A model generated the notes under the pieces. That model saw only the letters and a list, made by a program, of their open reading frames with translations. It had not been told where the DNA came from and ran no database searches. A stretch of DNA of 32,000 bases. Source: Cupriavidus necator (lineage in GTDB: Bacteria > Pseudomonadota > Gammaproteobacteria > Burkholderiales > Burkholderiaceae). The position numbers were made by a program, and so were the translations under genes. The DNA is taken from the NCBI RefSeq assembly GCF_016127575.1, contig NZ_CP066018.1, positions 210,001-242,000 on the forward strand, in the 5' to 3' direction. Positions 4,942 to 28,182 of this stretch are shown one piece after another; the first letter of the stretch is position 1; each line of letters begins with the position of its first letter.

Positions 4942-5825
4942 GCAGGAAAGACCCGCTCGCAGAGGAAATCGACCAGCGCCCTCACCTTGGGCGAGGGATG
5001 CCTGCTCGCCGGCCAGAGCACGTGAAAGGCCTTGGCTGGCCCCACATGGCCAGCCAGTACCTGGCACAGGCTGCCATCGGCGAGCTGCTCGCGGATGGCG
5101 AAATCCGGCAGGCAGGCAATGCCCAGGCCGCGCAGCGCAAAACACAGGCGCGTCTCGATGTTGTTGCAGATCATCGATGTCGGCAGCGCCAGCTCGGGCT
5201 CGCCCGGCGCGCGCCGCAGCGGCCAGGCCTCGAGCTTGCCGGTATGCGGGAAACGGTAATGCAGGCAGGCATGGCCGGTCAGGTCGGCAGGCAGCTTCGG
5301 CGTGCCACGCTGCGCGAGGTAGTCGGGCGATGCCACCAGCATCGCCTGGAACGCACCCAGCCTGCGTGCCGACAGGCGCGAGTCGGCGGGCTCGCCGGTG
5401 CGGACCACCGCATCGAAGCCCTCCTCGATGACATCGACCAGCTGGTCGGTGAAATCCAGGTCCAGCTCGATGTCCGGATACGCGCGCATGAAGTCGCCCA
5501 GCACGGGCAAGACCAGTGAACTGACCAGCGGCAGGCTCACCCGCAGGCGGCCGCGCGGTGCCGCGGTGGCTTCGGCCAGCTCCAGCTCCGCCGCTTCGAT
5601 CTCGGCGAGCACGCGGCGGCTGCGCTCCAGGAACAGCGTGCCTTCGGCGGTCAGCGTCACGCTGCGCGTGCTGCGGTGGAACAGCCGTACGCCGAGCCTT
5701 TCTTCCAGCCGCGCCACGCTCTTGCCGACGGCGGAGGCCGACACCCCAAGCAAGCGCCCCGCCGCGACAAAACTGCGGGTCTCGGCCACCTGCACAAACA
5801 CTGCGAAGCCACTGAGGCTGTCCAT
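4938..5825 (-). CDS. LysR-family transcriptional regulator
   Basis: N-terminal wHTH 'FAVFVQVAETRSFVAAGRLLGVSASAVGKSVARLEERLGVRLFHRSTR' plus an LTTR substrate-binding domain. The start is probably the ATG at 5825 (MDSLSG...). The track uses a GTG at 5846. Confidence 0.85.
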   Translation of the reverse strand: MDSLSGFAVFVQVAETRSFVAAGRLLGVSASAVGKSVARLEERLGVRLFHRSTRSVTLTAEGTLFLERSRRVLAEIEAAELELAEATAAPRGRLRVSLPLVSSLVLPVLGDFMRAYPDIELDLDFTDQLVDVIEEGFDAVVRTGEPADSRLSARRLGAFQAMLVASPDYLAQRGTPKLPADLTGHACLHYRFPHTGKLEAWPLRRAPGEPELALPTSMICNNIETRLCFALRGLGIACLPDFAIREQLADGSLCQVLAGHVGPAKAFHVLWPASRHPSPKVRALVDFLCERVFPA

Positions 5826-5850
5826 GATGCCCCCGATTGCGGACACAAAG

Positions 5851-5885
5851 TTCCGGAGAAAAAGGAACTGTAGCCCACTTTTTCT
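5851..5885. promoter_or_regulatory. Candidate LTTR operator region (inverted repeats in the divergent lysR / serine-hydrolase promoter)
   Basis: TTCC-N9-GGAA at 5851-5867. AGAAAAAG (5857-5864) and its reverse complement CTTTTTCT (5878-5885) are separated by 13 nt. The site is AT-rich and lies between divergent genes. Confidence 0.3.
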
Positions 5886-5938
5886 TTAATGGCCGGGTCC
5901 TTATCGTGAGCGGGTCGTTCATTGAACAAGGATTCGCT

Positions 5939-7141
5939 GTGTCCCTCCCCACGATTGCACCGCCCCCGGGCGTGTCCCCTGCATTCCCCGCGCCCGTGAG
6001 TGCGCGCATCGACGCCGTGGTCCGGCAGGCGCTGGAGCAACGGCGACTGGTCGGCGCCGTCGTGCTGGTCAGCCGTGACGGCGAACTGGTCCACCGGCAG
6101 GCGGCAGGCCTGGCCGATCGGGAAAGCGGACAGCCGATGCGCATGGATGCGGTCTTCCGGCTGGCTTCGGTAAGCAAGCCGATCGTCTCCGTGGCGGCAC
6201 TGGCGCTGGTCGCACAAGGCCGGCTCGAGCTTGACCAGGGTATCGACCGCTGGCTGCCTGAATTCCGCCCGCGCCTGGCCGATGGCCGACCGGCACGTAT
6301 CACGGCGCGGCAACTGCTCAGCCATACCGCGGGGCTGGGCTATCGCTTCTTCGAGTCCGGCGAAGACGGACCCTATGCCCGCGCCGGCGTCTCCGACGGC
6401 ATGGACGACGCCACCATCAGCCTGGCGGAGAACCTGCGGCGCATCGCCAGCGTGCCCTTGCTGTACGAACCGGGTACCGCGTGGGGCTACTCGCTCGCGA
6501 CCGACGTGCTGGGCGCGCTGATCGAGCGCGTCCATGGCACGCCGCTGGACACCGCAGTGCGGCAGCTGGTGACCGGCCCGCTGGGCATGGCCGACACCGG
6601 CTTCGTGGCACACGACGTGCACCGCGTGCCGACCCCGTACGTGAACGACAGCCCGCACCCGCACCGCCTGCGCGAAGGCGAAACCGTGCCCGTGCTCGAA
6701 GGCACGGTTGGCATTCCCTACAGTCCCGCACGCATCTTCAATGCGCGGGCCTTCCCCTCCGGCGGGGCGGGCATGGCGGGCACGGCGCAAGACTTCCTGT
6801 GCCTGCTGGAGAGCTTGCGCCAGGGCGGCGGCGCGTTGCTGCCATCCGCCCTGGTCGAGGACATGGCGCTCGACCAGACCGGCGGCCTGGACCTGCCCGA
6901 TGCGCCGGGAACCGGCTTCGGGCTGGGCTTCTCGGTGCTGCGCGATCCGCGCCGGGCGGGCTCGCCGGAAGCCGCCGGCACCTGGCGCTGGGGCGGGGCC
7001 TACGGCCACGCCTGGTTCGTCGACCGCAGCCAGGGGCTGAGCGTGGTGGCGTTCACCAACACGCTGTACGAGGGCATGTCCGGCCGCTTTGTCACCGACC
7101 TGCGCGACGCGGTCTACGGTGTCGCCCCCACAGCCGCGTAA
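5939..7141 (+). CDS. Serine hydrolase, beta-lactamase (class C/esterase EstB-like) family
   Basis: SxxK motif 'SVSK' in 'FRLASVSKPIVS', and 'LLSHTAGL'. I favour the GTG at 5939, which has AAGGA 6-7 nt upstream. The track start at 5837 would overlap the divergent lysR start. Confidence 0.8.
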   Translation: MSLPTIAPPPGVSPAFPAPVSARIDAVVRQALEQRRLVGAVVLVSRDGELVHRQAAGLADRESGQPMRMDAVFRLASVSKPIVSVAALALVAQGRLELDQGIDRWLPEFRPRLADGRPARITARQLLSHTAGLGYRFFESGEDGPYARAGVSDGMDDATISLAENLRRIASVPLLYEPGTAWGYSLATDVLGALIERVHGTPLDTAVRQLVTGPLGMADTGFVAHDVHRVPTPYVNDSPHPHRLREGETVPVLEGTVGIPYSPARIFNARAFPSGGAGMAGTAQDFLCLLESLRQGGGALLPSALVEDMALDQTGGLDLPDAPGTGFGLGFSVLRDPRRAGSPEAAGTWRWGGAYGHAWFVDRSQGLSVVAFTNTLYEGMSGRFVTDLRDAVYGVAPTAA

Positions 7142-14732: not shown

Positions 14733-16419
<1,687 letters not shown>

Positions 16420-16499
16420 TGAGAGCCCGATTCCCGCCGACCCGGAAATTGTGACAGCACCCCTCCTCGGCGGGGCTGCAACAGGCCTTCCCGGTGCGT

Positions 16500-16517
16500 T
16501 GCGGCGCATGCGCCGCA
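16500..16517. repeat. 18-bp perfect palindrome just downstream of the hydrolase gene (possible factor-dependent terminator or binding site)
   Basis: TGCGGCGCATGCGCCGCA is self-complementary. It lies 8 nt after the stop of the 16525-17331 CDS. No U-tract follows it on the minus strand. Confidence 0.35.
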
Positions 16518-16524
16518 CCCCGCC

Positions 16525-17331
16525 TCAGCGCCCCTCGCGGCGCATCGCGCCGATCAGGTCGCGCACCAGCTGCGCCGTCTCCTGCGGCCGCTCCATCGGG
16601 TACAGGTGGCCGCCCTCGATAAAGCGCAGATTCGGGCCGACCAGCTTGCGGGTGGCACCCAGCCCACACTGGCGCACCTCGCGCGAACGCGTGCCGGCGA
16701 CAAAGCCGACCGGCACCGGCGCGCCGCGCGCCACCTTGCGCCCCAGGCTGGTCGGCAGCGTGCGGTAGATCCAGTATTCGACCTCGCGGTCAAAGCGCAG
16801 CCGCCGCTCGTTGTCCTTGCCGGTCGGCTCGGTGCCGTGGATGGCGTAGTCGCGCAGCACCTCTTGGTCCCACACCGCGAAGTTGGGCTTGGCGCGGAAG
16901 TGTTCCCAGACCGCCTCGGCGTCCGGCCAGTGGGTGCGCCGGTTTTTGGTCACCGCCGCCGGGCCGGGCTTTTCGTCCATGCCGAACATCTGGGCGGTCT
17001 TCAGCAGCGACGCGCGCCAGCCGGCAATGATCGGCGAATCCAGCATCACCACGCCGCGCACGCGCTCCGGGCGCCGCAGCGCCGCCATCAGCGACAGGAA
17101 GCCGCCCAGCGAATGGCCCACCAGCCACACCGGCTCGTGGTACTGGCGGTCAATCTCGCCGAGCAGCTCCTCCACCAGGTGCGGCCAGCCGCGCGTCACC
17201 GGGAATTCAGGCTTGTGCCCGTAGCGGTCCACGGCGCGGAATTCGAAGTCGCCGTCCAGTTCGCCGAACAGCTTGCGGTAGGTGGTCACCGGGAAGCCGT
17301 TGGCATGGGAAAAATGAATGATCTCGCGCAT
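16525..17331 (-). CDS. Alpha/beta-fold hydrolase (appended to the Anbu operon)
   Basis: Nucleophile elbow 'GHSLGG' and an N-terminal 'HFSHANGF'. The ATG lies 21 nt after the Anbu stop, with GAGGAA 7 nt upstream. Confidence 0.8.
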   Translation of the reverse strand: MREIIHFSHANGFPVTTYRKLFGELDGDFEFRAVDRYGHKPEFPVTRGWPHLVEELLGEIDRQYHEPVWLVGHSLGGFLSLMAALRRPERVRGVVMLDSPIIAGWRASLLKTAQMFGMDEKPGPAAVTKNRRTHWPDAEAVWEHFRAKPNFAVWDQEVLRDYAIHGTEPTGKDNERRLRFDREVEYWIYRTLPTSLGRKVARGAPVPVGFVAGTRSREVRQCGLGATRKLVGPNLRFIEGGHLYPMERPQETAQLVRDLIGAMRREGR

Positions 17332-17352
17332 CGCTTGTTTCCTCGCCCGGCC

Positions 17353-18174
17353 TCAGTCCTGGGTACGCGACGGATTGCGCTTGGCGCGCACCGGCTGGCC
17401 CCAGCGGTCGGCCTCGCCGGGACGCGCCAGCGAGAATTCCGCGGGCGCGCCGGGATCCCACTCGGGATTGTGGATCTCGCCGAAGACCTGGCGCAGGCGC
17501 TGCCCCCAGGTGTCGCGGATCATGCGGAAGTAGGCGTTGCGCTCGTCGATGTTGACGAAGCGCGTCACGCACAGCGTATCGGCCTCATAGACCAGCAGGT
17601 CCAGCGGCAGGCCGACCGAGATATTCGACTTGAGCGTCGAATCCATCGAGATCAGCGCGCATTTGGCCCCCTCGGCCAGCGGCAGCGACGGGTGCACCAC
17701 GCGGTCGATGATGGGCTTGCCGTACTTGGCCTCGCCGATCTGGAAGTAGCAGTTCTCGGGCGTGGCCTCGACAAAATTGCCGGCCGCGTAGATGTTGAAC
17801 AGCCGCACGCGTTCACCGCGCACCTGGCCGCCGAAGATCAGGCTGACATTGAATTCGATGCCGGCATCGCGCAGCGCATGCGCATCGCGCTTGTGCACCT
17901 GGCGCACCGCCTCGCCGACGATGGAAGCGGCCTCGAACATGTCGCGCGCGGTCCACAGCGAGCGCTTCTCGTCATGGTTCTCGGCCAGGATCTGGCGCAC
18001 CGACTGGCTGATCGCCAGGTTGCCGGCGGTCATCAGCACCATCACGCGGTCGCCGGGCTCTTCGAACACCGTCATCTTGCGCGACGTGGAGATGGCATCT
18101 ACCCCCGCATTGGTGCGGGAATCGGACAGGAATACCAGGCCGGCATCCAGCCGCATGGCTACACAGTAAGTCAT
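17353..18174 (-). CDS. Anbu: proteasome-type N-terminal-nucleophile (Thr) peptidase, ancestral beta-subunit family
   Basis: Begins 'MTYCVAMRLDAGLVFLSDSRTNAG', so Thr immediately follows the initiator Met with no propeptide. Asp18 and Lys33 sit at proteasome-like catalytic positions. The gene context of ATP-grasp, alpha-E and transglutaminase is diagnostic. Confidence 0.85.
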   Translation of the reverse strand: MTYCVAMRLDAGLVFLSDSRTNAGVDAISTSRKMTVFEEPGDRVMVLMTAGNLAISQSVRQILAENHDEKRSLWTARDMFEAASIVGEAVRQVHKRDAHALRDAGIEFNVSLIFGGQVRGERVRLFNIYAAGNFVEATPENCYFQIGEAKYGKPIIDRVVHPSLPLAEGAKCALISMDSTLKSNISVGLPLDLLVYEADTLCVTRFVNIDERNAYFRMIRDTWGQRLRQVFGEIHNPEWDPGAPAEFSLARPGEADRWGQPVRAKRNPSRTQD

Positions 18175-18289
18175 GGTCTTGTTTTGGTGTGCTTTGCGGC
18201 GGCCGGAAGTGGCCAGCCGATGGCCTGCATACCCGGGATTCTAGCGCCCGTATTGCGGCACCGCGCCCTGTCTGGAATCAGGCACCTAA

Positions 18290-19153
18290 TCAGGTAAAAA
18301 GCGGCGTGATGCTCACATCAACTTCAAGCGTCTCGCCGGAACCCCCTTCCAGGATGCCCCTGACTGGTGCAGCCGACGCATAATCGCGCCCCACCGCGAG
18401 GCGTATATGACGCTCGTCGGTCAGGCAGCCGTGGGTGATGTCGACGCTGCACCACACCTCGCGCGCCGGGTCCAGGCATACGTCGGCCCAGGCATGGCTG
18501 GCCATCTCGATCGCGGCCGGATCGTAGAAGTATCCGCTCACATAGCGTGCCGGGATACCGAGCGCCCGGCACGCCGCCACCATCACCTGCGCCTGGTCCT
18601 GGCACACGCCGCTGCCCAGGCTGAAGGCCTCGGCCGCCGAGGTGCCGACGTCAGTGGTGTTGGGCTTGTAGCGCACCCGCTCCGCAATCCCCTGGGCCAA
18701 CGCCAGCAGCGCCGGAATCTCGTGCCCGGCCGCCAGGAACGGCGCGGCAAACGCCTGCATCTCCGGCGGAGCCGAGGTCAGTGGCGTGCTGCCGAGGAAG
18801 TACAGCGGCGACACCCGGGACTCGCCGGGGGGCGGAGCGTCGCAGAACGCATGGTGGCCGTCCCGGTCGAGGTCGCCATGCGGCGGCAGCACTTCCACCT
18901 CGCCGCTGGCTTCGATCGAGATGGTGCCGGTCGGTCCGGCCACCGTGAAGTTGTGCACGATATTGCCGAATCCGTCGCGCGCCGCCGACGGATTGCCAGG
19001 CGCGACCAGTTGCCAGCGGTGCACCGTCTGCAGCGGGCCCGAACGCGGCTCGAGCCGCACTTCGTGCACGCTGCGGCGCACCGGCTCGGCGTAGCGGTAA
19101 ACAGTATGGTGGTGGATCTTGTATTTCACGGTATCAGGGCGCGGCGGCGGCAC
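18290..19153 (-). CDS. Transglutaminase-like cysteine protease/ligase family protein (with bacterial transglutaminase N-terminal domain)
   Basis: 'YKIHHHTVYRY' N-domain. The Cys-His-Asp triad context is 'GSGVCQDQAQV', 'SHAWADV' and 'SVDITHG'. It has a GTG start, and an alternative GTG at 19129 exists. Confidence 0.85.
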   Translation of the reverse strand: MPPPRPDTVKYKIHHHTVYRYAEPVRRSVHEVRLEPRSGPLQTVHRWQLVAPGNPSAARDGFGNIVHNFTVAGPTGTISIEASGEVEVLPPHGDLDRDGHHAFCDAPPPGESRVSPLYFLGSTPLTSAPPEMQAFAAPFLAAGHEIPALLALAQGIAERVRYKPNTTDVGTSAAEAFSLGSGVCQDQAQVMVAACRALGIPARYVSGYFYDPAAIEMASHAWADVCLDPAREVWCSVDITHGCLTDERHIRLAVGRDYASAAPVRGILEGGSGETLEVDVSITPLFT

Positions 19154-19176
19154 ATGGAGGCTGCCGGCGGCCCATT

Positions 19177-20130
19177 TCAGGCAGCCAGCAGCGGCACGAG
19201 GAAGTCCCGGCTGATGCCATTGCCGAGATCGCCGATGCGCTCCAGGAAGCTGGTCAGGTACGCGTGCAGGCCGACCGCGAAAATATCGTCGATGCGCGCG
19301 TACTTCAGGTCGGCGTGGAGTTTACCAGCCTGGCGCTCGGTTTCCGCCGATTGCTGGTTGCGCACCGTATGCAGGATGGCCACCACCTCGTCCATGCTCG
19401 ACACCAGCGAGCGCGGCATGTCGGGCCGCAGGATCAGCAGCTCGGCCACGCGCTGCGGCGTAATGACCGCGCGATAGACCTTGCGGTAGACCTCGAAGCC
19501 CGAGACCGAGCGCAGCACCGCGGCCCAGTGATAGAAATCGTTCTGGTCGCGGTTGGCATCGCTCTCGTCGCTGCCCGATGCCTGGAACTTGACGTCGAGG
19601 ATCCGCGCGGTGTTGTCGGCGCGCTCCAGGAACGTGCCCAGCCGCATGAAGTGGAAGGCATCGTCCTTGAGCATGGTGCCGAACTGGACCCCGCGCGCCA
19701 GGTGCGAGCGGAACTTGACCCATTCGAAGAACGCCGACGGGTCCTCCTTCAGCACGCCGTCGGCGATCAGGCGCTGCACCTCCAGCCAGGTGGTGTTGAC
19801 GGTCTCCCAGACCTCGGTGGTCAGCGAGCCGCGCACCGCGCGCGCATTCTCGCGCGCCGCGCGCAGGCAGCTCATGATGGACGAGGCGTTGGTCATGTCG
19901 CGCACCATGAAGTCGATCACATCGTCGCGCGACAGCAGTCCGTACTTGTGGTCGAAGACATCGGTCAGCTCCGAGATATCGAGCATGGCCCACCAGCCCT
20001 GCTCGGCCACCTCGGCCGATTGCGGCAGGAGCGAGGTCTGGTAGTTGACGTCGAGCATGCGCGCGGTGTTCTCCGCGCGCTCGGTATAGCGGGCCATCCA
20101 GAACAGGTGGTCGGCGGTGCGGCTCAGCAT
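19177..20130 (-). CDS. Alpha-E domain protein (alpha-helical, conserved ER motif)
   Basis: 'ADHLFWMARYTERAENTARMLDV' and a second 'FLERADNTARILDV'. AGGAGA lies 7 nt upstream of the ATG. Length is 317 aa. Confidence 0.85.
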   Translation of the reverse strand: MLSRTADHLFWMARYTERAENTARMLDVNYQTSLLPQSAEVAEQGWWAMLDISELTDVFDHKYGLLSRDDVIDFMVRDMTNASSIMSCLRAARENARAVRGSLTTEVWETVNTTWLEVQRLIADGVLKEDPSAFFEWVKFRSHLARGVQFGTMLKDDAFHFMRLGTFLERADNTARILDVKFQASGSDESDANRDQNDFYHWAAVLRSVSGFEVYRKVYRAVITPQRVAELLILRPDMPRSLVSSMDEVVAILHTVRNQQSAETERQAGKLHADLKYARIDDIFAVGLHAYLTSFLERIGDLGNGISRDFLVPLLAA

Positions 20131-20197
20131 GTGGGCTCTCCTGGCGTGGCGGCGGTCGCCATGGCGGTCGTTGCGGCGGTCATCATGTGGTTCGCGT

Positions 20198-21673
20198 TCA
20201 TCGTTCCAGCACCCAGGTGTCCTTGGTGCCGCCCCCTTGCGAGGAATTCACCACCAGCGAGCCCTCGCGCAGCGCCACGCGGGTCAGCCCGCCAGGCACC
20301 ATGCGCACCTCCTTGCCCGACAGCACGAACGGGCGCAGGTCGATATGGCGCGGCGCGATGCCCGACTCCACATAGGTCGGGCAGGTCGACAGCGCCAGCG
20401 TCGGCTGCGCGATGTACTGCTCCGGGCGCGCCTTCACCACTTCGCGGAAGGCATCGATCTCGGCCCGCGTGGCGGCCGGGCCGACCAGCATGCCGTAGCC
20501 GCCGGCGCCGTGGGTCTCCTTGACCACCAGTTCTTCCATATGGTCCAGCACGTACTGCAGGTCGTCCGGGCGCCGGCACATATAGGTCGGCACGTTGCTG
20601 AGGATGGCCTCTTCGCCCAGGTAGAAGCGGATCATGTCGGGCACGTACGGATAGATCGACTTGTCGTCGGCCACGCCCGTGCCGATGGCGTTGCAGATGG
20701 TCACGTTGCCGGCGCGGTAGACCGACAGCAAGCCGGCCGCGCCCAGCGAGGAATCGTGGCGGAACACCAGCGGGTCGAGGAAGTCGTCGTCGACGCGGCG
20801 GTAGATCACGTCGACGCGCTGCGGGCCCTGCGTGGTGCGCATGAACAGGTGGTCGTCCTCGACGAAGAGATCGCTGCCTTCGACCAGTTCCACGCCCATC
20901 TGCTGCGCCAGGAAGGCATGCTCGAAGTAGGCCGAGTTGTACATGCCCGGCGTCAGCACCACCACGGTGGGATCGGCAATGGCCTGCGGCGACACCCCGC
21001 GCAGCATGTCGAGCAACAGGTCAGGATAGTGGGCCACCGGCGCCACGCGGTTGCGCGCGAACAGGTCCGGGAACAACCGCATCATCATCTTGCGGTTTTC
21101 CAGCATGTACGACACGCCCGAGGGCACGCGCAGGTTGTCTTCCAGCACGTAGAACTCGCCCTCGCCGGCGCGCACCACGTCGATGCCGGCCACGTGCGCA
21201 TAGATGTCGTGCGGCACGTTGACGCCGAGCATCTCGGGCCGGTACTGGGCGTTGTTGTAGATCTGGTCGGGCGGGATCACGCCGGCGCGGATGATGTCCT
21301 GGCCGTGGTAGATATCGTGGACAAAGCGGTTGAGCGCGGCCACGCGCTGGCGCAGCCCTTTTTCCAGCAGCGCCCATTCGTTCGCCGGGAAGATGCGCGG
21401 GATCACGTCGAACGGAATGGTGCGTTCGGTGCCGCTGTTGGCTTCATCCTTGTCGCCGTAGACGGCAAAGGTAATGCCCACGCGCCGGAAGATCAGGTCG
21501 GCCTCGGCGCGCTTGTTGCCCATCGTGCCTTCAGACTGCCGCGCCAGCCAGTCAGCGAAATGCCGGTAATGCGGGCGCACCGCGCCTTCAGGCAACGCCT
21601 GCCCCGCCTGGATAACCCATTGCGCCCCGTCCGTGCGCCAGTCCAGCATCTCGTCGAAATACCGCCCCGCCAT
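20198..21673 (-). CDS. Circularly permuted type-2 ATP-grasp protein
   Basis: 491 aa. 'EFYVLEDNLRVPSGVSYMLENR', 'NAIGTGVADDKSIYPYVP' and 'GGYGMLVGP' are typical of this family. GGAGGA lies 9 nt upstream of the ATG. Confidence 0.85.
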   Translation of the reverse strand: MAGRYFDEMLDWRTDGAQWVIQAGQALPEGAVRPHYRHFADWLARQSEGTMGNKRAEADLIFRRVGITFAVYGDKDEANSGTERTIPFDVIPRIFPANEWALLEKGLRQRVAALNRFVHDIYHGQDIIRAGVIPPDQIYNNAQYRPEMLGVNVPHDIYAHVAGIDVVRAGEGEFYVLEDNLRVPSGVSYMLENRKMMMRLFPDLFARNRVAPVAHYPDLLLDMLRGVSPQAIADPTVVVLTPGMYNSAYFEHAFLAQQMGVELVEGSDLFVEDDHLFMRTTQGPQRVDVIYRRVDDDFLDPLVFRHDSSLGAAGLLSVYRAGNVTICNAIGTGVADDKSIYPYVPDMIRFYLGEEAILSNVPTYMCRRPDDLQYVLDHMEELVVKETHGAGGYGMLVGPAATRAEIDAFREVVKARPEQYIAQPTLALSTCPTYVESGIAPRHIDLRPFVLSGKEVRMVPGGLTRVALREGSLVVNSSQGGGTKDTWVLER

Positions 21674-21923
21674 GATGGCCGTTCCTCCATGTCGCGGGCT
21701 TCCGGTGCTACCGCTTCACTGCGACTTCGTGGTCGCTACCGGCTGCCCTGGTTTTGCCCTGGCTTTCCCGTCCCCAGCCCGCCGCGCCTGCCCGTTCGGG
21801 ACGCTCACGGCGATACTGTCGAGTCACTGGCCCTTTCAGCATACCCGTACCGGCGAAACCCGCAAGCTGGCGGGTGCCGGCCGGCACGGAAAGTGAACTA
21901 GCAAGATGTCTGCCAGCGCACGC

Positions 21924-21953
21924 AAAAACGGCCGCCAGCCAGGCTGGCGGCCG
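21924..21953 (-). terminator. Rho-independent terminator downstream of gntK
   Basis: CGGCCGCCAGCC (21929-21940) and GGCTGGCGGCCG (21942-21953) form a near-perfect 25-nt palindrome. On the minus strand it is followed by TTTTT (complement of 21924-21928). It lies 55 nt after the gntK stop. Confidence 0.75.
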
Positions 21954-22007
21954 CTTGCGGGCTGCACGGGAACGGGGCCGGCCGGAACGGTCGGCGAGGT
22001 CAGCAGG

Positions 22008-22514
22008 TCAGCGCGCCGCGCCGGCGCCCTGCGGCACCGTGGCCTGCAGGATGGTGGCGACCAGCGCCTCGGGCGACTGGCGGATGTCGAGCACCAGCGC
22101 GTCGCTGGGCTCTTCCAGCGTATCGAACTGGCTTTGCAGCAGGTCGGGGTTGAAGAAGTGTTCCGTGCGCGCGGACAGGCGCGTGCCGATCAGCGATGCA
22201 TCGCCCTTCATGAAGACGAAGGTCACGCCGCCGTCGGGCGGGGTCAGCCGGTCGCGGTAGGCCTGGCGCAGTGCCGAGCAGGTGAACACATGGGTGCGGC
22301 CTTCGGCCCGGGCCGCGTCGATGGCGGCGCGCATGGCCGCCAGCCATGGCCAGCGGTCTTCGTCGGTCAGCGGGACGCCAGCGTGCATCTTGGCCTTGTT
22401 GGCGTCGCTGTGGAATGCATCGGCGTCATGGAAGCCGCAGCCCAGTCGCTGCGCCAGCAACTGGCCGACCGTGGTCTTGCCGCTGCCGGAAACGCCCATC
22501 AGGATATAGATCAT
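22008..22514 (-). CDS. gntK: Gluconokinase
   Basis: P-loop 'GVSGSGKTT', 'FHDADAFH' and '[10 protein letters not shown]'. I prefer the ATG at 22514, which has GGAG 6 nt upstream. The ATG at 22553 (MATPSDT...) would give an E. coli-like N-terminal extension and cannot be excluded. Confidence 0.85.
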
Positions 22515-22664
22515 GTCTGCTCCGTCGGTCTTGGTATCGGATGGTGTCGCCATCCTTGTCTGTCCTTGTCGGTCCAGCTGGACGTCCTTGCGGCGGCGCA
22601 AAGACGTCGGGGGGGCGCTGCCGCCCCGCAGGGAACTTCAGGGGAAAATCGGCCTCAGGCCTGG

Positions 22665-24560
22665 CTATTGTGCGACGGTTTGCGCCGCTGCGGTACGTTG
22701 GCGCCCGCCTGCGCCGGCCCCAACATCCGCCTCGGACAGGTCAAGTGCGCTGCCGCCCTCTTCCGCGATGCGCGCGTGGCGCCGGAACAGGCCGAACAGG
22801 CCGCGCCCCAGGCTGAATTGCGCGAAATCGTCGTCCGGCGCCGCGGCCAGCTCGCGCGCCGCGAATTCACGTTCGTCGCCCAGCCACTGCAGCGTGCCGG
22901 CAACGGCATCGACACGGATGCGGTCGCCGTCGCGCACGCGCGCGAGCGCGCCGCCGGCCAGCGCCTCGGGGCCAACGTGGATCACCGCCGGCACCTTGCC
23001 CGACGCGCCGGACATGCGGCCGTCGGTCACCAGCGCCACCTTGTGGCCGGCGTCCTGCAGCGCGCCCAGCACCGGGGTCAGGCGGTGCAGCTCGGGCATG
23101 CCGTTGGCGTTCGGCCCCTGGAAACGCACCACCGCGACCAGGTCGCCGGTCAGCTCGCCCGCATCGAAGGCCGCCTGCAGCGCCTCCTGCGCATCGAACA
23201 CCCGCACCGGGGCTTCGACCACGCGGTGCTCCGGCGCCACCGCCGAGACCTTGATCACGCCGCGGCCCAGGTTGCCCTGCATCAGCCGCAACCCGCCCTC
23301 GGCCGAGAAAGGCTCCGCGACCGTCGCCAGCACCTGCGCGTCGCCGCTGTGCGCCGCGCCGTCGCGCCAGCGCAGCACGCCGTCGGCCATCACCGGCTCC
23401 TGCGCATAGCGGGCCAGCCCGGGGCCGGCCACGGTCTGCACGTCCTCATGCAGCAGGCCGGCCTGCAGCAGTTCGCGGATGACGAAACCGGCGCCGCCCG
23501 CGGCATGGAAGTGGTTCACATCGGCCGAGCCATTCGGGTAGACGCGCGCCAGCAGCGGCGTGATGCGCGACAGCAGGTCGAAATCGTTCCAGTCGATGAC
23601 GATGCCCGCGGCGCGCGCCATCGCCACCAGGTGGATGGTGTGGTTGGTGGAGCCGCCGGTCGCCAGCAGGCCGACCATGGCGTTGGCAATGGCGCGCTCG
23701 TCGACGATGCGCGCCAGCGGCAGGTATTCGTCGCCGCGCGCGCGCAGGGCGATCGCGCGTTGCGCGGCCGCCGCGGTCAGCGCATCGCGCAGGCCGCTGT
23801 CCGGGTGCACGAAGGCCGCGCCCGGCAGGTGCAGGCCCATGATTTCCATCAGGAACTGGTTGCTGTTGGCGGTGCCGTAGAAGGTGCAGGTGCCGGCGCC
23901 GTGGTAGGCCTGGCATTCGGCTTCGAGCAGCGCATCGCGCCCGACCTGGCCGGTGGCGTAGAGCTGGCGCACGCGCGCCTTCTCCTTGTTGGGCAGCCCG
24001 CTGGCCATCGGGCCCGCCGGCACGAACACCATCGGCAGGTGGCCGAACTGCAGCGCGCCCATCAGCAGGCCGGGCACGATCTTGTCGCACACGCCCAGCA
24101 TCAGCGCCGCATCAAAGGTGTTGTGCGACAGCGCCACCGCGGTGCCCATCGCAATCGCATCGCGCGAGAACAGCGACAGCTCCATGCCCGGGTTGCCCTG
24201 CGTGATGCCGTCGCACATCGCCGGCACGCCGCCCGCCACCTGCGCCACCGCGCCCACCGCGCGCGCGGCCTCGCGGATCACGGCGGGGTAGCGCTCGTAC
24301 GGCTGGTGCGCCGACAGCATGTCGTTGTACGCGGTGACGATGCCCAGGTTGGGGGCATGGTCGACGCGCAGCTTCAGCTTGTCGTTGGCCGGCAATGCGG
24401 CAAAGCCGTGCGCCAGGTTGGCGCAGGACATGCCGCGCAGCGGCCCCAGTTCAGCCTGCGCGCGCTCGCAGCGGGCAAGGTAGGCGGCGCGGCTGGCGCG
24501 GCTGCGCGCGACGATGCGCTCGGTGACGGCAAGAAGCTCGGCATGGACGGCAGAAGGCAT
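22665..24560 (-). CDS. edd: Phosphogluconate dehydratase (Entner-Doudoroff)
   Basis: IlvD/Edd family with 'AMCDGITQG', '[10 protein letters not shown]' and '[20 protein letters not shown]'. The start is the ATG at 24560 ([10 protein letters not shown]...), with AAGGA upstream. The track ORF is over-extended to 24611. Confidence 0.93.
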
Positions 24561-25764: not shown

Positions 25765-28182
25765 CTAACGCGGCGCCGGCGGTCGCGCCCGCCAGTAGCG
25801 CGGCTGCGCCTGCCGGAACACCGACAACGCAAAGCCCCCGGGCGCAGTGTCCATGGTCACCGCGCCGGTTTCATCGGTCCGGTAGCGCAGGACGCCCGCG
25901 CGGCCGTAGCGCTCCCACACCTCGCCGCTCGGGTGGCGATAGCGGTTGGCATAACCCAGCTGGAACACCGCCGCCGACGGGCGCACTGCCTCCAGCCAGG
26001 CTGCACCGGATGAGGTGCCGCTGCCATGGTGGGCCACCACCAGCACGTCGGCACGCAGCACCTCGGCCGGCAACCTGTCGATCAACGCACGCTCCTGCGC
26101 CACGCCGATGTCTCCGGTCAGCAGCAGGCTGTGCGCCGCCGCATCCACGCGCAGCACGCAGCTGCGCGCATTGCTGGCAATGGCTGCCTGCTGCGCCTGC
26201 TCCGCGAGCGGATGCAGCACGGTAAAGCGCACGCCGTCCCACTCCCATTGCTGGCCCGCCGCGCATGGCGACCAGTCATTGGCCGCCGACCCAAGCAGAA
26301 CGTGACCGGCAGGCGCTCCGGTGCTGCGCGCGGACACGGCCACCGCCGCCGTGATGTCCGCCACGCCGCCGGCATGGTCGGTGTCTTCATGGCTGACCAT
26401 CAGGTGGTCGATCCGGCCAACCCCCTCGCCCCGCAGCAATGGCACCACCACCTGCGCACCGGCGCTGGATCCCGACGCATAAGACGGCCCGGTGTCATAC
26501 AGCAGCGCATGGGCGCGCGTTCGCACCAGCACCGCCGTGCCCTGCCCCACGTCCAGCATCACCGCGCGGAACTCGCCATGCGCAACCGGCGGGCCGCGCG
26601 CCAGCAGCATCGGCAACATCAGCAGCCCGCCGTGCAGGCGCGCGCGCGCGGTGGCGACCGGCGCGACCAGCAGCCCGACACCGAGCGCCGCCAGCACCAG
26701 CGCCAACGGCCCCGCGCTGGCCGCTTCCCACATCGCCCATGGCAGCGCCGAAAGCCAGCCCAGCACCGCGGCCAGCGCCACCATAGCCAGGTGGGCCACC
26801 GCCAGCACCGGCCCGGCCAGCGCCATCGGCAAGGCGGCGCCGAGCAAAGCCAGCGGCGTCACCAGCAGGCTGACGACCGGGATCGCCACCGCATTGGCCA
26901 ACGGCGACACCACCGATACCTGGCCGAACAGCAGCAACGTCAGCGGCACCAGCCCGATGGTCACGGCCCACTGCGTGCGCGCCCCGGCGGCGAGCACGGA
27001 CCGCAGGCGTTGCCAACGCCCTTCCGTCGAAGCATCCCGGCCGGGCCGGGCCGCGAAGAAGATCACGGCCACCGCGCCGAAGGACAGCCAGAAGCCGGGC
27101 AACATCACCGCCCACGGATCCAGCAGCAATGCCGCCAGCGCCGCCCACGCCAGCACCACCGAGGCGGGCGGCGCACGCGCACTCCATACCGCAATGGCCG
27201 CCACGCAGAGCATGGCCACGGTGCGCAGCGCCGGGACCTGCATGCCGGCCAGCAGGCCGTAAGCCAGCGCACTGGCCACGGCCGCCACCAGCGCGGCCTG
27301 CCGGGCCGGCAGCCACAGCGGCAACGGCCGGCGCAGCCAGCGGCCGAGTCCGAACGAATGCCGCCACAACAGCCCGGCAAGCGACGCCGCCATGCCGGCG
27401 ATCATGGTGATATGCAGCCCGGAGATCGCGACCAGGTGGCTGACGCCGGTGCGCCGGAACAGTTGCCAGTCGTCCGCATCGATACCGCGCTGGTCGCCAA
27501 TGACCAGCGCGGTCAGCACCGCGCCAAAGCGCGCATCGGCCGGCAGCGCCGCGCGCAGGTGATCGCGCACGGCGGCGCGCACGGCCTCAATGCGCCATGC
27601 CAGCCGCTCCGCGGACGCGTCCTGCGGCGGCCCTTGTGCGCGGCGCACATAGCCGGTGGCGCCATAGCCCTGCGCCAGCAGCCAATAGGCGTAGTCAGAA
27701 CCAAAAGGATTGGCGAGTCCGCGCGGACGCCGCAGGCGCAGGGTCAGCGTGAGGCGCTGCCCGGGACGCAGGTCGGGCGGTGCGCCACGCCAGTTGAGGA
27801 TCACGCGGCGCGGCAGAGGCTGGCCCGCATCACCCTGCTCCACAGTCAAGGCAAAACGCGTCCCGGTGGCGGCATCCGCCGGCAGCCCCGACACCACGCC
27901 GCGCACGTCGAGGTCGCGCGCCTCCAGCGTGGCCGGCAGCCAGTCGCGCATGCGCAGTTCGGCCCGCCAGGCCGCCCAGCAGAAGGCGGCGCCGAACGCC
28001 AGCCCGGCAAGCGCCAGGCCATGCAGCACGACGTGCAGGCGCCTGCCCCACAAGGCGATGCCGAGAGCGACCAATGTCAGCGCCACAGCACCGAGGCGCA
28101 GGCCATCCTGCGGCGGCAGCATTGACTGCTGCTGCAGCGTCCAGCATCCCGCGACGAAAGCCACCACGAACCAGCGCACCAC
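25765..28182 (-). CDS. comEC: DNA internalization-related competence protein ComEC/Rec2
   Basis: 805 aa polytopic membrane protein with a C-terminal metallo-beta-lactamase domain ('VSHEDTDHAGG', 'VVAHHGS'). The GTG start has AGGAGA 5 nt upstream. Confidence 0.85.
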   Translation of the reverse strand: MVRWFVVAFVAGCWTLQQQSMLPPQDGLRLGAVALTLVALGIALWGRRLHVVLHGLALAGLAFGAAFCWAAWRAELRMRDWLPATLEARDLDVRGVVSGLPADAATGTRFALTVEQGDAGQPLPRRVILNWRGAPPDLRPGQRLTLTLRLRRPRGLANPFGSDYAYWLLAQGYGATGYVRRAQGPPQDASAERLAWRIEAVRAAVRDHLRAALPADARFGAVLTALVIGDQRGIDADDWQLFRRTGVSHLVAISGLHITMIAGMAASLAGLLWRHSFGLGRWLRRPLPLWLPARQAALVAAVASALAYGLLAGMQVPALRTVAMLCVAAIAVWSARAPPASVVLAWAALAALLLDPWAVMLPGFWLSFGAVAVIFFAARPGRDASTEGRWQRLRSVLAAGARTQWAVTIGLVPLTLLLFGQVSVVSPLANAVAIPVVSLLVTPLALLGAALPMALAGPVLAVAHLAMVALAAVLGWLSALPWAMWEAASAGPLALVLAALGVGLLVAPVATARARLHGGLLMLPMLLARGPPVAHGEFRAVMLDVGQGTAVLVRTRAHALLYDTGPSYASGSSAGAQVVVPLLRGEGVGRIDHLMVSHEDTDHAGGVADITAAVAVSARSTGAPAGHVLLGSAANDWSPCAAGQQWEWDGVRFTVLHPLAEQAQQAAIASNARSCVLRVDAAAHSLLLTGDIGVAQERALIDRLPAEVLRADVLVVAHHGSGTSSGAAWLEAVRPSAAVFQLGYANRYRHPSGEVWERYGRAGVLRYRTDETGAVTMDTAPGGFALSVFRQAQPRYWRARPPAPR

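Follow-up and report, generated by a model that had tools for sequence, protein, structure and literature searches.

A 32,000-nucleotide (nt) stretch of the Cupriavidus necator genome (contig NZ_CP066018.1, positions 210,001 to 242,000 of the forward strand; hereafter, the window) carries a complete Anbu operon, the genes of which encode a circularly permuted ATP-grasp protein, an Alpha-E protein and a transglutaminase-like protein as well as Anbu, a homologue of the proteasome β subunit. It is a standard, intact and typical copy of this operon, with minor lineage-specific variation, and is preceded by a conserved σ54-type promoter-like element. The role which we tentatively favour, at just short of an even chance, is that of a nitrogen-limitation-induced module, in which an amide ligase, a papain-fold amidase or transferase and an N-terminal nucleophile (Ntn) peptidase turn over peptides or proteins for the recycling of nitrogen.

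This kind of operon is already known, and the locus adds no new kind of system. An earlier, model-generated note on the sequence (the original prediction) had likewise considered the family not to be novel, in agreement with its description in 2008–2009, the structures published in 2017–2018 and the cloning of the C. necator orthologue. Among widespread proteasome homologues, Anbu is one of the few to which neither a substrate nor a function has been assigned, and one of the proteins encoded with it, Alpha-E, is without a solved or recognisable fold. What is new here is a set of concrete predictions, namely a σ54 promoter at 21915..21900, a proximal σ70-like block and a separate −10 element for anbu, together with the replacement of Phe30 in the S1 pocket by Ser or Ala and an uneven conservation, in which the transglutaminase-like gene changes fastest. 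The locus sits in a tractable, well-studied genus where nitrogen limitation is routine for polyhydroxybutyrate production; by itself it does not make the question of function more tractable than the published model systems.

The four genes and their products

All four open reading frames (ORFs) lie on the minus strand and are transcribed from 21673 to 17353, with gaps of 67, 23 and 115 nt between the ATP-grasp, Alpha-E, transglutaminase-like and anbu genes (Table 1). The original prediction had described four co-directional genes separated by just these gaps, and the ORFs are present exactly as described; its gene positions hold as well, to which the strand, missing from that account, is added here. 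The G+C content at third codon positions (GC3) of the four genes is 0.83–0.92 in a genome of 67% G+C (66–70%), which is what would be expected of real, expressed genes in a high-GC genome. The start of the transglutaminase-like gene is uncertain. An alternative in-frame GTG at 19129, which lies two codons ahead of the Pfam N-terminal domain match and at which many orthologue alignments start, would give a protein of 279 amino acids (aa) and is equally plausible as the GTG at 19153.

The ATP-grasp protein matches the Pfam profiles CP_ATPgrasp_2 (PF14403; 1.2e-168, profile positions 1–374 of 374) and CP_ATPgrasp_1 (PF04174; 1e-155, full length), and its residues 27–490 align with PDB entry 3N6X (3e-214). 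The residues E178-D179-N180, K385 and the HGAGGYG loop (H388–G394), which from general knowledge of ATP-grasp enzymes we take to be the Mg and ATP motifs, do not vary among 12 orthologues. A 12-orthologue profile searched against all PDB sequences retrieved 3N6X only, with nothing else below E 0.4, and in this search the protein shows no link to glutathionylspermidine/trypanothione synthetase.

Alpha-E matches PF04168 over the entire profile (4e-100, positions 1–294 of 294), and the pairs E17-R18 and E169-R170 are invariant in the orthologue alignment. Its sequence has no match among PDB sequences. The AlphaFold2 model (predicted local distance difference test score 81.9) is all-helical, with 16 helices, and a Foldseek search of the PDB with this model reveals no meaningful neighbour (best E 0.22, template modelling score below 0.31); the fold therefore offers no clue to mechanism. 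The protein is also an internal duplication, with the two ER motifs RYTERAENTARMLDV and TFLERADNTARILDV.

The transglutaminase-like protein contains Bact_transglu_N (4.5e-23) and Transglut_core (2.4e-22) domains, and its GVCQD, SHAW and VDIT motifs align with GVCRD, FHAC and FDAT of 3ISR.

The fourth gene product, Anbu, scores 22.4 bits against the Pfam Proteasome profile (PF00227), which is exactly the gathering threshold, and because of this its identity rests on solved structures. It aligns from Thr1 with 5LOY, a designed consensus Anbu (4.7e-90, query residues 2–240), and with the chains from Yersinia bercovieri (5NYW; 2e-76), Hyphomicrobium (5NYJ and 5NYF; ~1e-73) and Pseudomonas aeruginosa (5LOX; 2e-62). 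The 5LOY alignment, reaching residue 240, includes the C-terminal segment, and at the level of the sequence the extension of helix H5, which stabilises the split ring, is present. No NCBIfam model matches any of the four operon proteins; given this and the Pfam score exactly at threshold, Anbu could easily be missed or misnamed by automated pipelines. Among 1.84 billion representatives, the family comprises 261 representative clusters at E<=1e-30.

The catalytic Thr directly follows the initiator Met, with no propeptide. The conservation sample used throughout consists of 80 loci from a scan of one genome per species; the 81 Anbu orthologues (that of the window and 80 others) all share T1, D17, T20, K32, G50, L52 and S55, with T or S at position 48. 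Of these residues, T1, D17, K32 and G50 form the catalytic set described for Anbu by Fuchs 2017 and Piasecka 2018 (PMC5666114, PMC6376114). The S1 pocket of P. aeruginosa Anbu-1 consists of T20-F30-T48-L52-S55, and that of Anbu-2 of I20-A29-R46-R50-T53 (PMC5666114). In the window it reads T20-S30-T48-L52-S55, matching four of the five Anbu-1 residues, and, judged from the alignment, it is clearly not of the basic Anbu-2 type. Position 30 (codon 18082..18084) is Ser in six sequences, including that of the window, and Ala in 47 Cupriavidus loci; Phe is retained by Ralstonia and Oxalobacteraceae. As aligned, half of the hydrophobic patch of the S1 pocket is lost in Cupriavidus, which we read as a change, specific to this genus, to a wider and more polar specificity pocket.

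Residues ~241–273 (17353..17455) form a tail of ~33 aa past the crystallised core, which measures 240–251 aa in the PDB. The tails of Burkholderiales Anbu proteins are variable (30–60 aa) with a conserved (Q/K/E)PVR motif, present as RWGQPVRAKR in the window; Ralstonia has EPVRIAPP and Oxalobacteraceae have KPVRVP. Such a tail could serve as a docking or autoregulatory peptide.

These Pfam and PDB searches place the 491-aa ATP-grasp, 317-aa Alpha-E, transglutaminase-fold and Anbu proteins in the families which the original prediction had named, and its residue-level claims also stand. Alpha-E has two ER motifs (RYTERAENTAR and TFLERADNTAR); the transglutaminase motifs GVCQD, SHAWADV and SVDITHG are present, with Cys, His and Asp in line with those of 3ISR; and Anbu starts with MTYC, its D18 and K33 (precursor numbering; D17 and K32 of the mature protein) aligning with the PDB chains. 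The catalytic signatures, said to look intact, are so in all of the named families according to the Pfam and PDB alignments and orthologue conservation. PADLOC returned no family for any of five proteins (the four operon proteins and the hydrolase encoded downstream), and a reading of the locus as anti-phage defence was rejected on this ground.

Promoter-like elements and gene order in relatives

The σ54-type element sits in a 334-nt intergenic region, directly past the upstream terminator. Its GG and GC doublets are exactly 10 nt apart and it is of the TGGCAC-N5-TTGCW type on the coding strand; the σ54 consensus is GGcacg-N4-ttGC (PMC5491218). The window matches the pattern TGGCA-N6-TTGC once, with TGGCAGACATCTTGC on the operon strand (21915..21901), where 0.49 would be expected in 64 kb (both strands). 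Among the 48 Cupriavidus loci with an obtainable upstream region, 47 possess TGGCArryATCTTGCT in the intergenic region, the exception (L030) having TGGCTCGCATCTTGCT, and the element is kept while the leader varies in length from 129 to 255 nt and the flanks fail to align. In Oxalobacteraceae loci, either TGGCAC-N5-TTGAT or TGGCAT-N5-GTGCT, both σ54-like, is found a short way upstream of the first gene.

The exact 16-mer TGGCAGACATCTTGCT is also found inside the comEC coding sequence of 19 Ralstonia species (L050–L069), ~430 nt upstream of the ATP-grasp ATG, where it encodes L-MADILL-VPHHGS with both the GCA and the TTG codon invariant. GCA and TTG codons are expected to be rare in such high-GC genomes. 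The comEC gene of the window (25765..28182, minus strand) has LRADVLVVAHHGS, without the 16-mer motif. As to whether the Cupriavidus σ54 region could be a remnant of a comEC fragment, beyond the 16-mer this region and the Ralstonia comEC flanks agree by eye at 5 of 12 and 4 of 8 positions, which is the chance level. The Ralstonia copy is either a promoter lying within comEC or a chance match under coding constraint.

Alignment of 20 Cupriavidus leaders reveals a second conserved block with σ70-like hexamers, from which we infer a weaker, σ70-type promoter for the operon. A conserved small ORF at this block was ruled out, as the reading frames differ between species, and a 44-codon upstream peptide ORF in the leader of the window was likewise discarded, being conserved neither in frame nor in length (MLKA-stop in L030). 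The 228-nt leader matched nothing in Rfam at the gathering threshold or at E<=1, and its fold is not significant (z-score −1.66).

A third element lies between the transglutaminase-like gene and anbu. There, GCGCTAGAAT has its one match in the window, against 0.01 expected. Of 20 Cupriavidus and Ralstonia spacers aligned, 19 share CTAGAAT and one (L046) has CTACAAT, the remainder of the spacer being unalignable, and GCGCTAGAAT persists even at the three loci with anbu apart from its usual neighbours (L020, L078 and L021). We regard it as the probable −10 element of an internal anbu promoter. With an invariant −10-like element and a detached anbu in several species, anbu is likely also expressed alone, and a single transcript for the four genes is probably too simple. 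The layout that we infer is a σ54 promoter and a weaker σ70-type promoter for the operon, with an internal promoter for anbu.

Nearly all of the 51 Cupriavidus-type loci have the order ATP-grasp, Alpha-E, transglutaminase-like, anbu, as do the 19 Ralstonia loci which reach far enough upstream and loci of Noviherbaspirillum, Actimicrobium and Janthinobacterium. Overall, nearly all 80 loci keep it, with ~49 Cupriavidus and ~20 Ralstonia species represented and at least five genera sharing it. This neighbourhood comparison, which had been recommended with the original prediction, reveals that operon order is kept across Cupriavidus, Ralstonia and Oxalobacteraceae, and both gene families and gene order match the published operon; the locus is the Anbu neighbourhood, as that prediction had it. 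The closest relatives are the loci of Cupriavidus lacunae (L001; Anbu 99% identical) and Cupriavidus sp. UYPR2.512 (L003; 96–98% DNA identity across the locus), and the Alpha-E protein of the window has 100% identity with a C. necator entry. Conservation is highest for the pair of ATP-grasp and Alpha-E, and the transglutaminase-like protein is the fastest-evolving of the four (Table 1). In Oxalobacteraceae loci, the ATP-grasp and Alpha-E genes are a few bases apart. A heteromer of the two proteins is predicted.

Several relatives depart from this arrangement. L073 and L075 lack the transglutaminase-like gene. In L020 (4637..8000), an AidB-like acyl-CoA dehydrogenase gene and a TetR gene are located between the transglutaminase-like gene and anbu, a similar-sized gap separates anbu from the other three genes in L078, and in L021 anbu is found without those genes within 8 kb. 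An IS256/Mutator-family transposase (5390..6709) splits alpha-E in L027.

Nitrogen limitation and competing explanations

As proposed here, a σ54 promoter needing an NtrC-type activator would transcribe the first three genes under nitrogen limitation. The ATP-grasp protein, with the tightly co-evolving Alpha-E, would spend ATP on an amide (peptide or isopeptide) bond of a peptide or protein substrate, and the transglutaminase-like Cys-His-Asp enzyme would hydrolyse or transfer such bonds in processing, de-tagging or deamidation. Anbu, made from the operon transcript and from its own promoter, would act as an N-terminal-threonine peptidase degrading the resulting peptides or proteins; downstream hydrolases (here the α/β-hydrolase) may complete the breakdown, and the net effect would be that amino-acid nitrogen is recycled during starvation. 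The gene identities, the intact catalytic residues and the conserved gene order and promoter-like elements described above are the starting points of this scheme, to which it adds a presumed activator, presumed substrates, a presumed chemistry for each enzyme and a presumed coupling of ligation to degradation.

The σ54 element fits the published picture of nitrogen limitation. The Anbu operon is the most upregulated gene set in nitrogen-limited Pseudomonas putida (note added in proof, PMC3235984; PMC5666114), and these data agree with the σ54 link here. A paralogous ATP-grasp/Alpha-E/transglutaminase cluster of Burkholderia cenocepacia is σ54- and NtrC-dependent (PMC5491218), COG3484 is predicted in the σ54 regulons of alpha-, beta- and gamma-proteobacteria (PMC12316311), and in marine metagenomes Anbu-operon domains vary together with those of urea metabolism (PMC3597751). 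With regard to the enzymes, Thr1 of P. aeruginosa Anbu reacts with epoxomicin and MG132 (Fuchs 2017, PMC5666114), and the Yersinia ATP-grasp protein releases inorganic phosphate from ATP (Piasecka 2018, PMC6376114).

A number of observations weigh against the nitrogen-recycling module. The support for the σ54 element comes from its sequence and its conservation, and in Ralstonia the 16-mer lies within comEC, so that its conservation there may reflect coding constraint. Matches to GCAC-N7-GTGC, sought as the site of an NtrC-type activator, occur at chance level with none that stands out, and the 100–150 nt upstream of the promoter are gluconokinase coding sequence. Peptidase activity in vitro is not known for any Anbu protein. 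Those of Y. bercovieri, Hyphomicrobium and P. aeruginosa had neither peptidase nor amidase activity, and pull-downs gave no specific partners (Piasecka 2018, PMC6376114); no complexes of the four proteins were detected, and the ATPase of the ATP-grasp protein was not stimulated by Anbu (PMC5666114, PMC6376114). Loss of the transglutaminase-like gene at two loci and detachment of anbu at three indicate that the four genes are not an obligate unit. Lastly, the leader and spacers contain no conserved ORF for a small modifier protein or precursor peptide, and the neighbours edd, gluconokinase, α/β-hydrolase, pyrG, kdsA and eno include no gene for an AAA+ unfoldase.

The definition of the operon as COG2308, COG2307, COG1305 and Anbu goes back to Valas and Bourne 2008. 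No published function for it was found in the full-text literature up to 2026, and the statement of the original prediction that its function is undemonstrated therefore stands; a 2026 preprint merely assumes a quality-control role for Anbu. Its further statement, that structural work had brought neither a substrate nor clear proteolysis, agrees with Fuchs 2017, where standard substrates were not cleaved by P. aeruginosa Anbu, Thr1 was inhibitor-reactive and co-expression gave no altered form (PMC5666114). A literature search for C. necator H16 expression data on the Anbu operon gave nothing relevant.

Like the operons of P. aeruginosa/P. putida, Y. bercovieri and Hyphomicrobium (Valas & Bourne 2008; Fuchs 2017; Piasecka 2018; Vielberg 2018), the locus has the same four genes in the same order and an identical active site (T1, D17, K32, G50), and the similarity of its Anbu to the natural structures (2e-62 to 2e-76) places this protein with Anbu-1. 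It differs from them at residue 30, which is Phe in the P. aeruginosa and Y. bercovieri proteins but Ser here and Ala in most Cupriavidus, and in the addition of the ~33-aa C-terminal tail, the α/β-hydrolase gene after anbu and the internal −10-like element. ReAnbu of Ralstonia eutropha (C. necator), cloned by Piasecka 2018, is from the same genus as the window; the C. necator loci in the sample show 92–95% Anbu protein identity. ReAnbu did not assemble into multi-subunit particles in that study (PMC6376114). The B. cenocepacia cluster I35_5080-5083 shares the ligase, Alpha-E and transglutaminase core, and its σ54/NtrC dependence is experimental (PMC5491218); unlike the present locus, clusters of this type have no Ntn peptidase and possess an extra large transglutaminase-domain protein. 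HslV, like Anbu, is a homo-oligomeric proteasome β homologue with an N-terminal Thr, but it needs the AAA+ partner HslU and is heat-shock regulated, whereas Anbu is without an AAA+ partner and is not heat induced.

It seems to us unlikely that the locus is a true tagging and degradation system akin to the Pup-proteasome or ubiquitin, in which ATP-grasp and Alpha-E attach a tag (an amino acid, a short peptide or a polyamine), the transglutaminase-like protein activates or removes this tag and Anbu degrades the tagged proteins. The mycobacterial Pup-proteasome supports amino-acid recycling under nitrogen starvation, a role that parallels the nitrogen-limitation link here. That one operon encodes a ligase and a homologue of the proteasome together with a papain-fold amidase also speaks for tagging, a peptide synthesis/tagging system was proposed by Iyer 2009 (as cited in PMC5666114, PMC6376114), and the predicted promoter layout would suit a standing protease with inducible taggers. 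However, the locus has no modifier gene or conserved small ORF and its neighbours include no unfoldase gene, pull-downs gave no interaction of Anbu with other proteins (PMC6376114), neither a gate nor a docking partner is known for the split ring of Anbu (PMC5666114), and some species lack the transglutaminase-like gene or have anbu detached.

Comparison with the Pup-proteasome of Actinobacteria points the same two ways. That system likewise combines a carboxylate-amine ligase, an amidase and a proteasome-fold peptidase, but there the ligase fold is that of the glutamine-synthetase-like PafA and Dop, in place of the ATP-grasp and papain-fold proteins found here. Unlike it, the locus has no gene for a Pup-like modifier, for the AAA+ protein Mpa/ARC or for α subunits, and Anbu is an open split ring, whereas the Pup-system proteasome is a closed barrel. 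On this comparison, the resemblance to Pup or ubiquitin tagging is one of functional analogy, not membership.

We also doubt that the genes form a small-peptide or metabolite pathway, in which the ligase would make a non-ribosomal peptide or an amide-linked metabolite and the transglutaminase-like protein and Anbu would be maturation or recycling peptidases, a variant being a cycle resembling that of glutathionylspermidine synthetase/amidase. ATP-grasp enzymes, glutathione synthetase included, do form amide bonds through an acyl-phosphate (PMC6376114), the depositors of 3N6X named it "putative glutathionylspermidine synthase," clusters of ATP-grasp, Alpha-E and transglutaminase genes exist without Anbu, and the accessory hydrolases downstream are of a small-molecule type. 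Yet the ATP-grasp profile recovers 3N6X only from the PDB and no glutathionylspermidine/trypanothione synthetase, the Yersinia enzyme is not stimulated by glutamate or glutamine (Piasecka 2018, PMC6376114), and Fuchs 2017 see the multi-site ring and the diversified S1 pockets as better suited to protein degradation (PMC5666114).

A wiring of the locus as two units is more speculative and, in our estimate, distinctly improbable. Anbu would be constitutive, from its own −10 element, and latent until the other three genes, gated by σ54 and expressed under nitrogen starvation only, provide the enzymes that covalently modify its protein or peptide substrates, which would make this a tagging–degradation system with an evolutionary origin independent of pupylation and ubiquitin. 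If true, such wiring would account for purified Anbu being inactive on unmodified substrates; it might explain a decade of negative assays, for which substrates from nitrogen-starved cells expressing these three genes would then be apt.

Bulk, non-specific proteolysis by Anbu in nitrogen-starved cells, where the transglutaminase-like protein would free ammonia from glutamine side chains, with a shared regulon in place of a pathway and a functionally independent anbu, is the third hypothesis of Piasecka 2018 (PMC6376114) and draws on the moderate, constitutive expression of P. aeruginosa Anbu (PMC5666114) and on the internal −10-like element and the detached genes of L020, L078 and L021, which suggest that anbu can be expressed and maintained on its own, but it is very unlikely in view of the strict gene order across genera here and, according to the literature, across phyla, and it leaves the ATP-consuming ligase and Alpha-E without a role.

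Coordinates, flanking genes and minor observations

Table 1. Features of the Anbu locus in window coordinates, with protein identities (%) to the orthologues of Ralstonia and Oxalobacteraceae
Feature	Coordinates	Strand	Basis and remarks	Ralstonia	Oxalobacteraceae
Terminator-like hairpin and T-run GCCGCCAGCCTGGCTGGCGGCCGTTTTT	21924..21951	−	Ends the edd-gluconokinase unit; upstream boundary of the operon		
Putative σ54-type −24/−12 element TGGCAGACATCTTGCT	21900..21915	−	GG-N10-GC spacing; 228 nt upstream of the ATP-grasp ATG		
Second leader block, σ70-like	21838..21865	−	TTGCGG, 16 nt, TATGCT; then conserved GAAAGGGCCAGTGACTCGACA		
Circularly permuted ATP-grasp (carboxylate-amine ligase type), 491 aa	20198..21673	−	Pfam, PDB 3N6X; Shine-Dalgarno GGAGGA; GC3 0.90	87	71–76
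Alpha-E, 317 aa, all-helical	19177..20130	−	Pfam PF04168	86	67–70
Transglutaminase-like (papain-fold Cys-His-Asp), 287 aa, GTG start	18290..19153	−	Pfam, 3ISR alignment	63	39–44
Invariant −10-like GCGCTAGAAT before anbu	18238..18247	−	Inside the 115-nt transglutaminase-like/anbu spacer		
Anbu (Anbu-1 type proteasome β homologue), 273 aa	17353..18174	−	PDB Anbu chains	76	64–70
α/β-Hydrolase, 268 aa	16525..17331	−	Pfam Abhydrolase_6		

Upstream, the operon is bordered by edd and the gluconokinase gene, and the terminator-like site at 21924..21951 is the sole one on the minus strand within 16300..22700. Downstream, a gene for an α/β-hydrolase starts 21 nt past anbu, with a Shine-Dalgarno sequence (GAGGA), a GHSLGG nucleophile elbow and a match to Abhydrolase_6 (7e-15); its PDB relatives are only remote. 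The terminator scan of 16300..22700 reveals no terminator-like site at the anbu/hydrolase junction, and the hydrolase gene is probably co-transcribed with anbu. It follows anbu in most Cupriavidus and Ralstonia loci; because it is missing from nine Cupriavidus loci and from Oxalobacteraceae, we regard it as a lineage-specific accessory gene, not a core component. In other lineages, anbu is followed by a gene for an M20 peptidase (L079 8890..10296, 11-nt gap) or for a DUF900 α/β-hydrolase (L080 7393..8709). The position after anbu is a recurrent but non-homologous "finishing hydrolase" slot in three lineages.

Next to the hydrolase gene are pyrG, kdsA and eno. A near-consensus −10 sequence, TATAAT, is present in CATGTATAATCCCG, ~45 nt upstream of the pyrG ATG (window 16386..16524), and pyrG-kdsA-eno therefore represents a unit separate from the Anbu operon, though co-directional with it.

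Identity is mosaic in the two closest relatives. That of L003 is 96–98% at the DNA level from edd to kdsA but 92.8% in anbu, and in L001 the Anbu proteins are 99% and the transglutaminase-like proteins 92% identical, which suggests recombination within the operon. The two loci without a transglutaminase-like gene, L073 and L075, are on contigs labelled as "Candidatus Paceibacteria" and "Bradyrhizobium" metagenome-assembled genomes, both from metagenome 3300054697. Their Anbu loci resemble those of Oxalobacteraceae, with an SSF-family symporter gene directly upstream in L073, and the taxon labels are likely to be binning errors.

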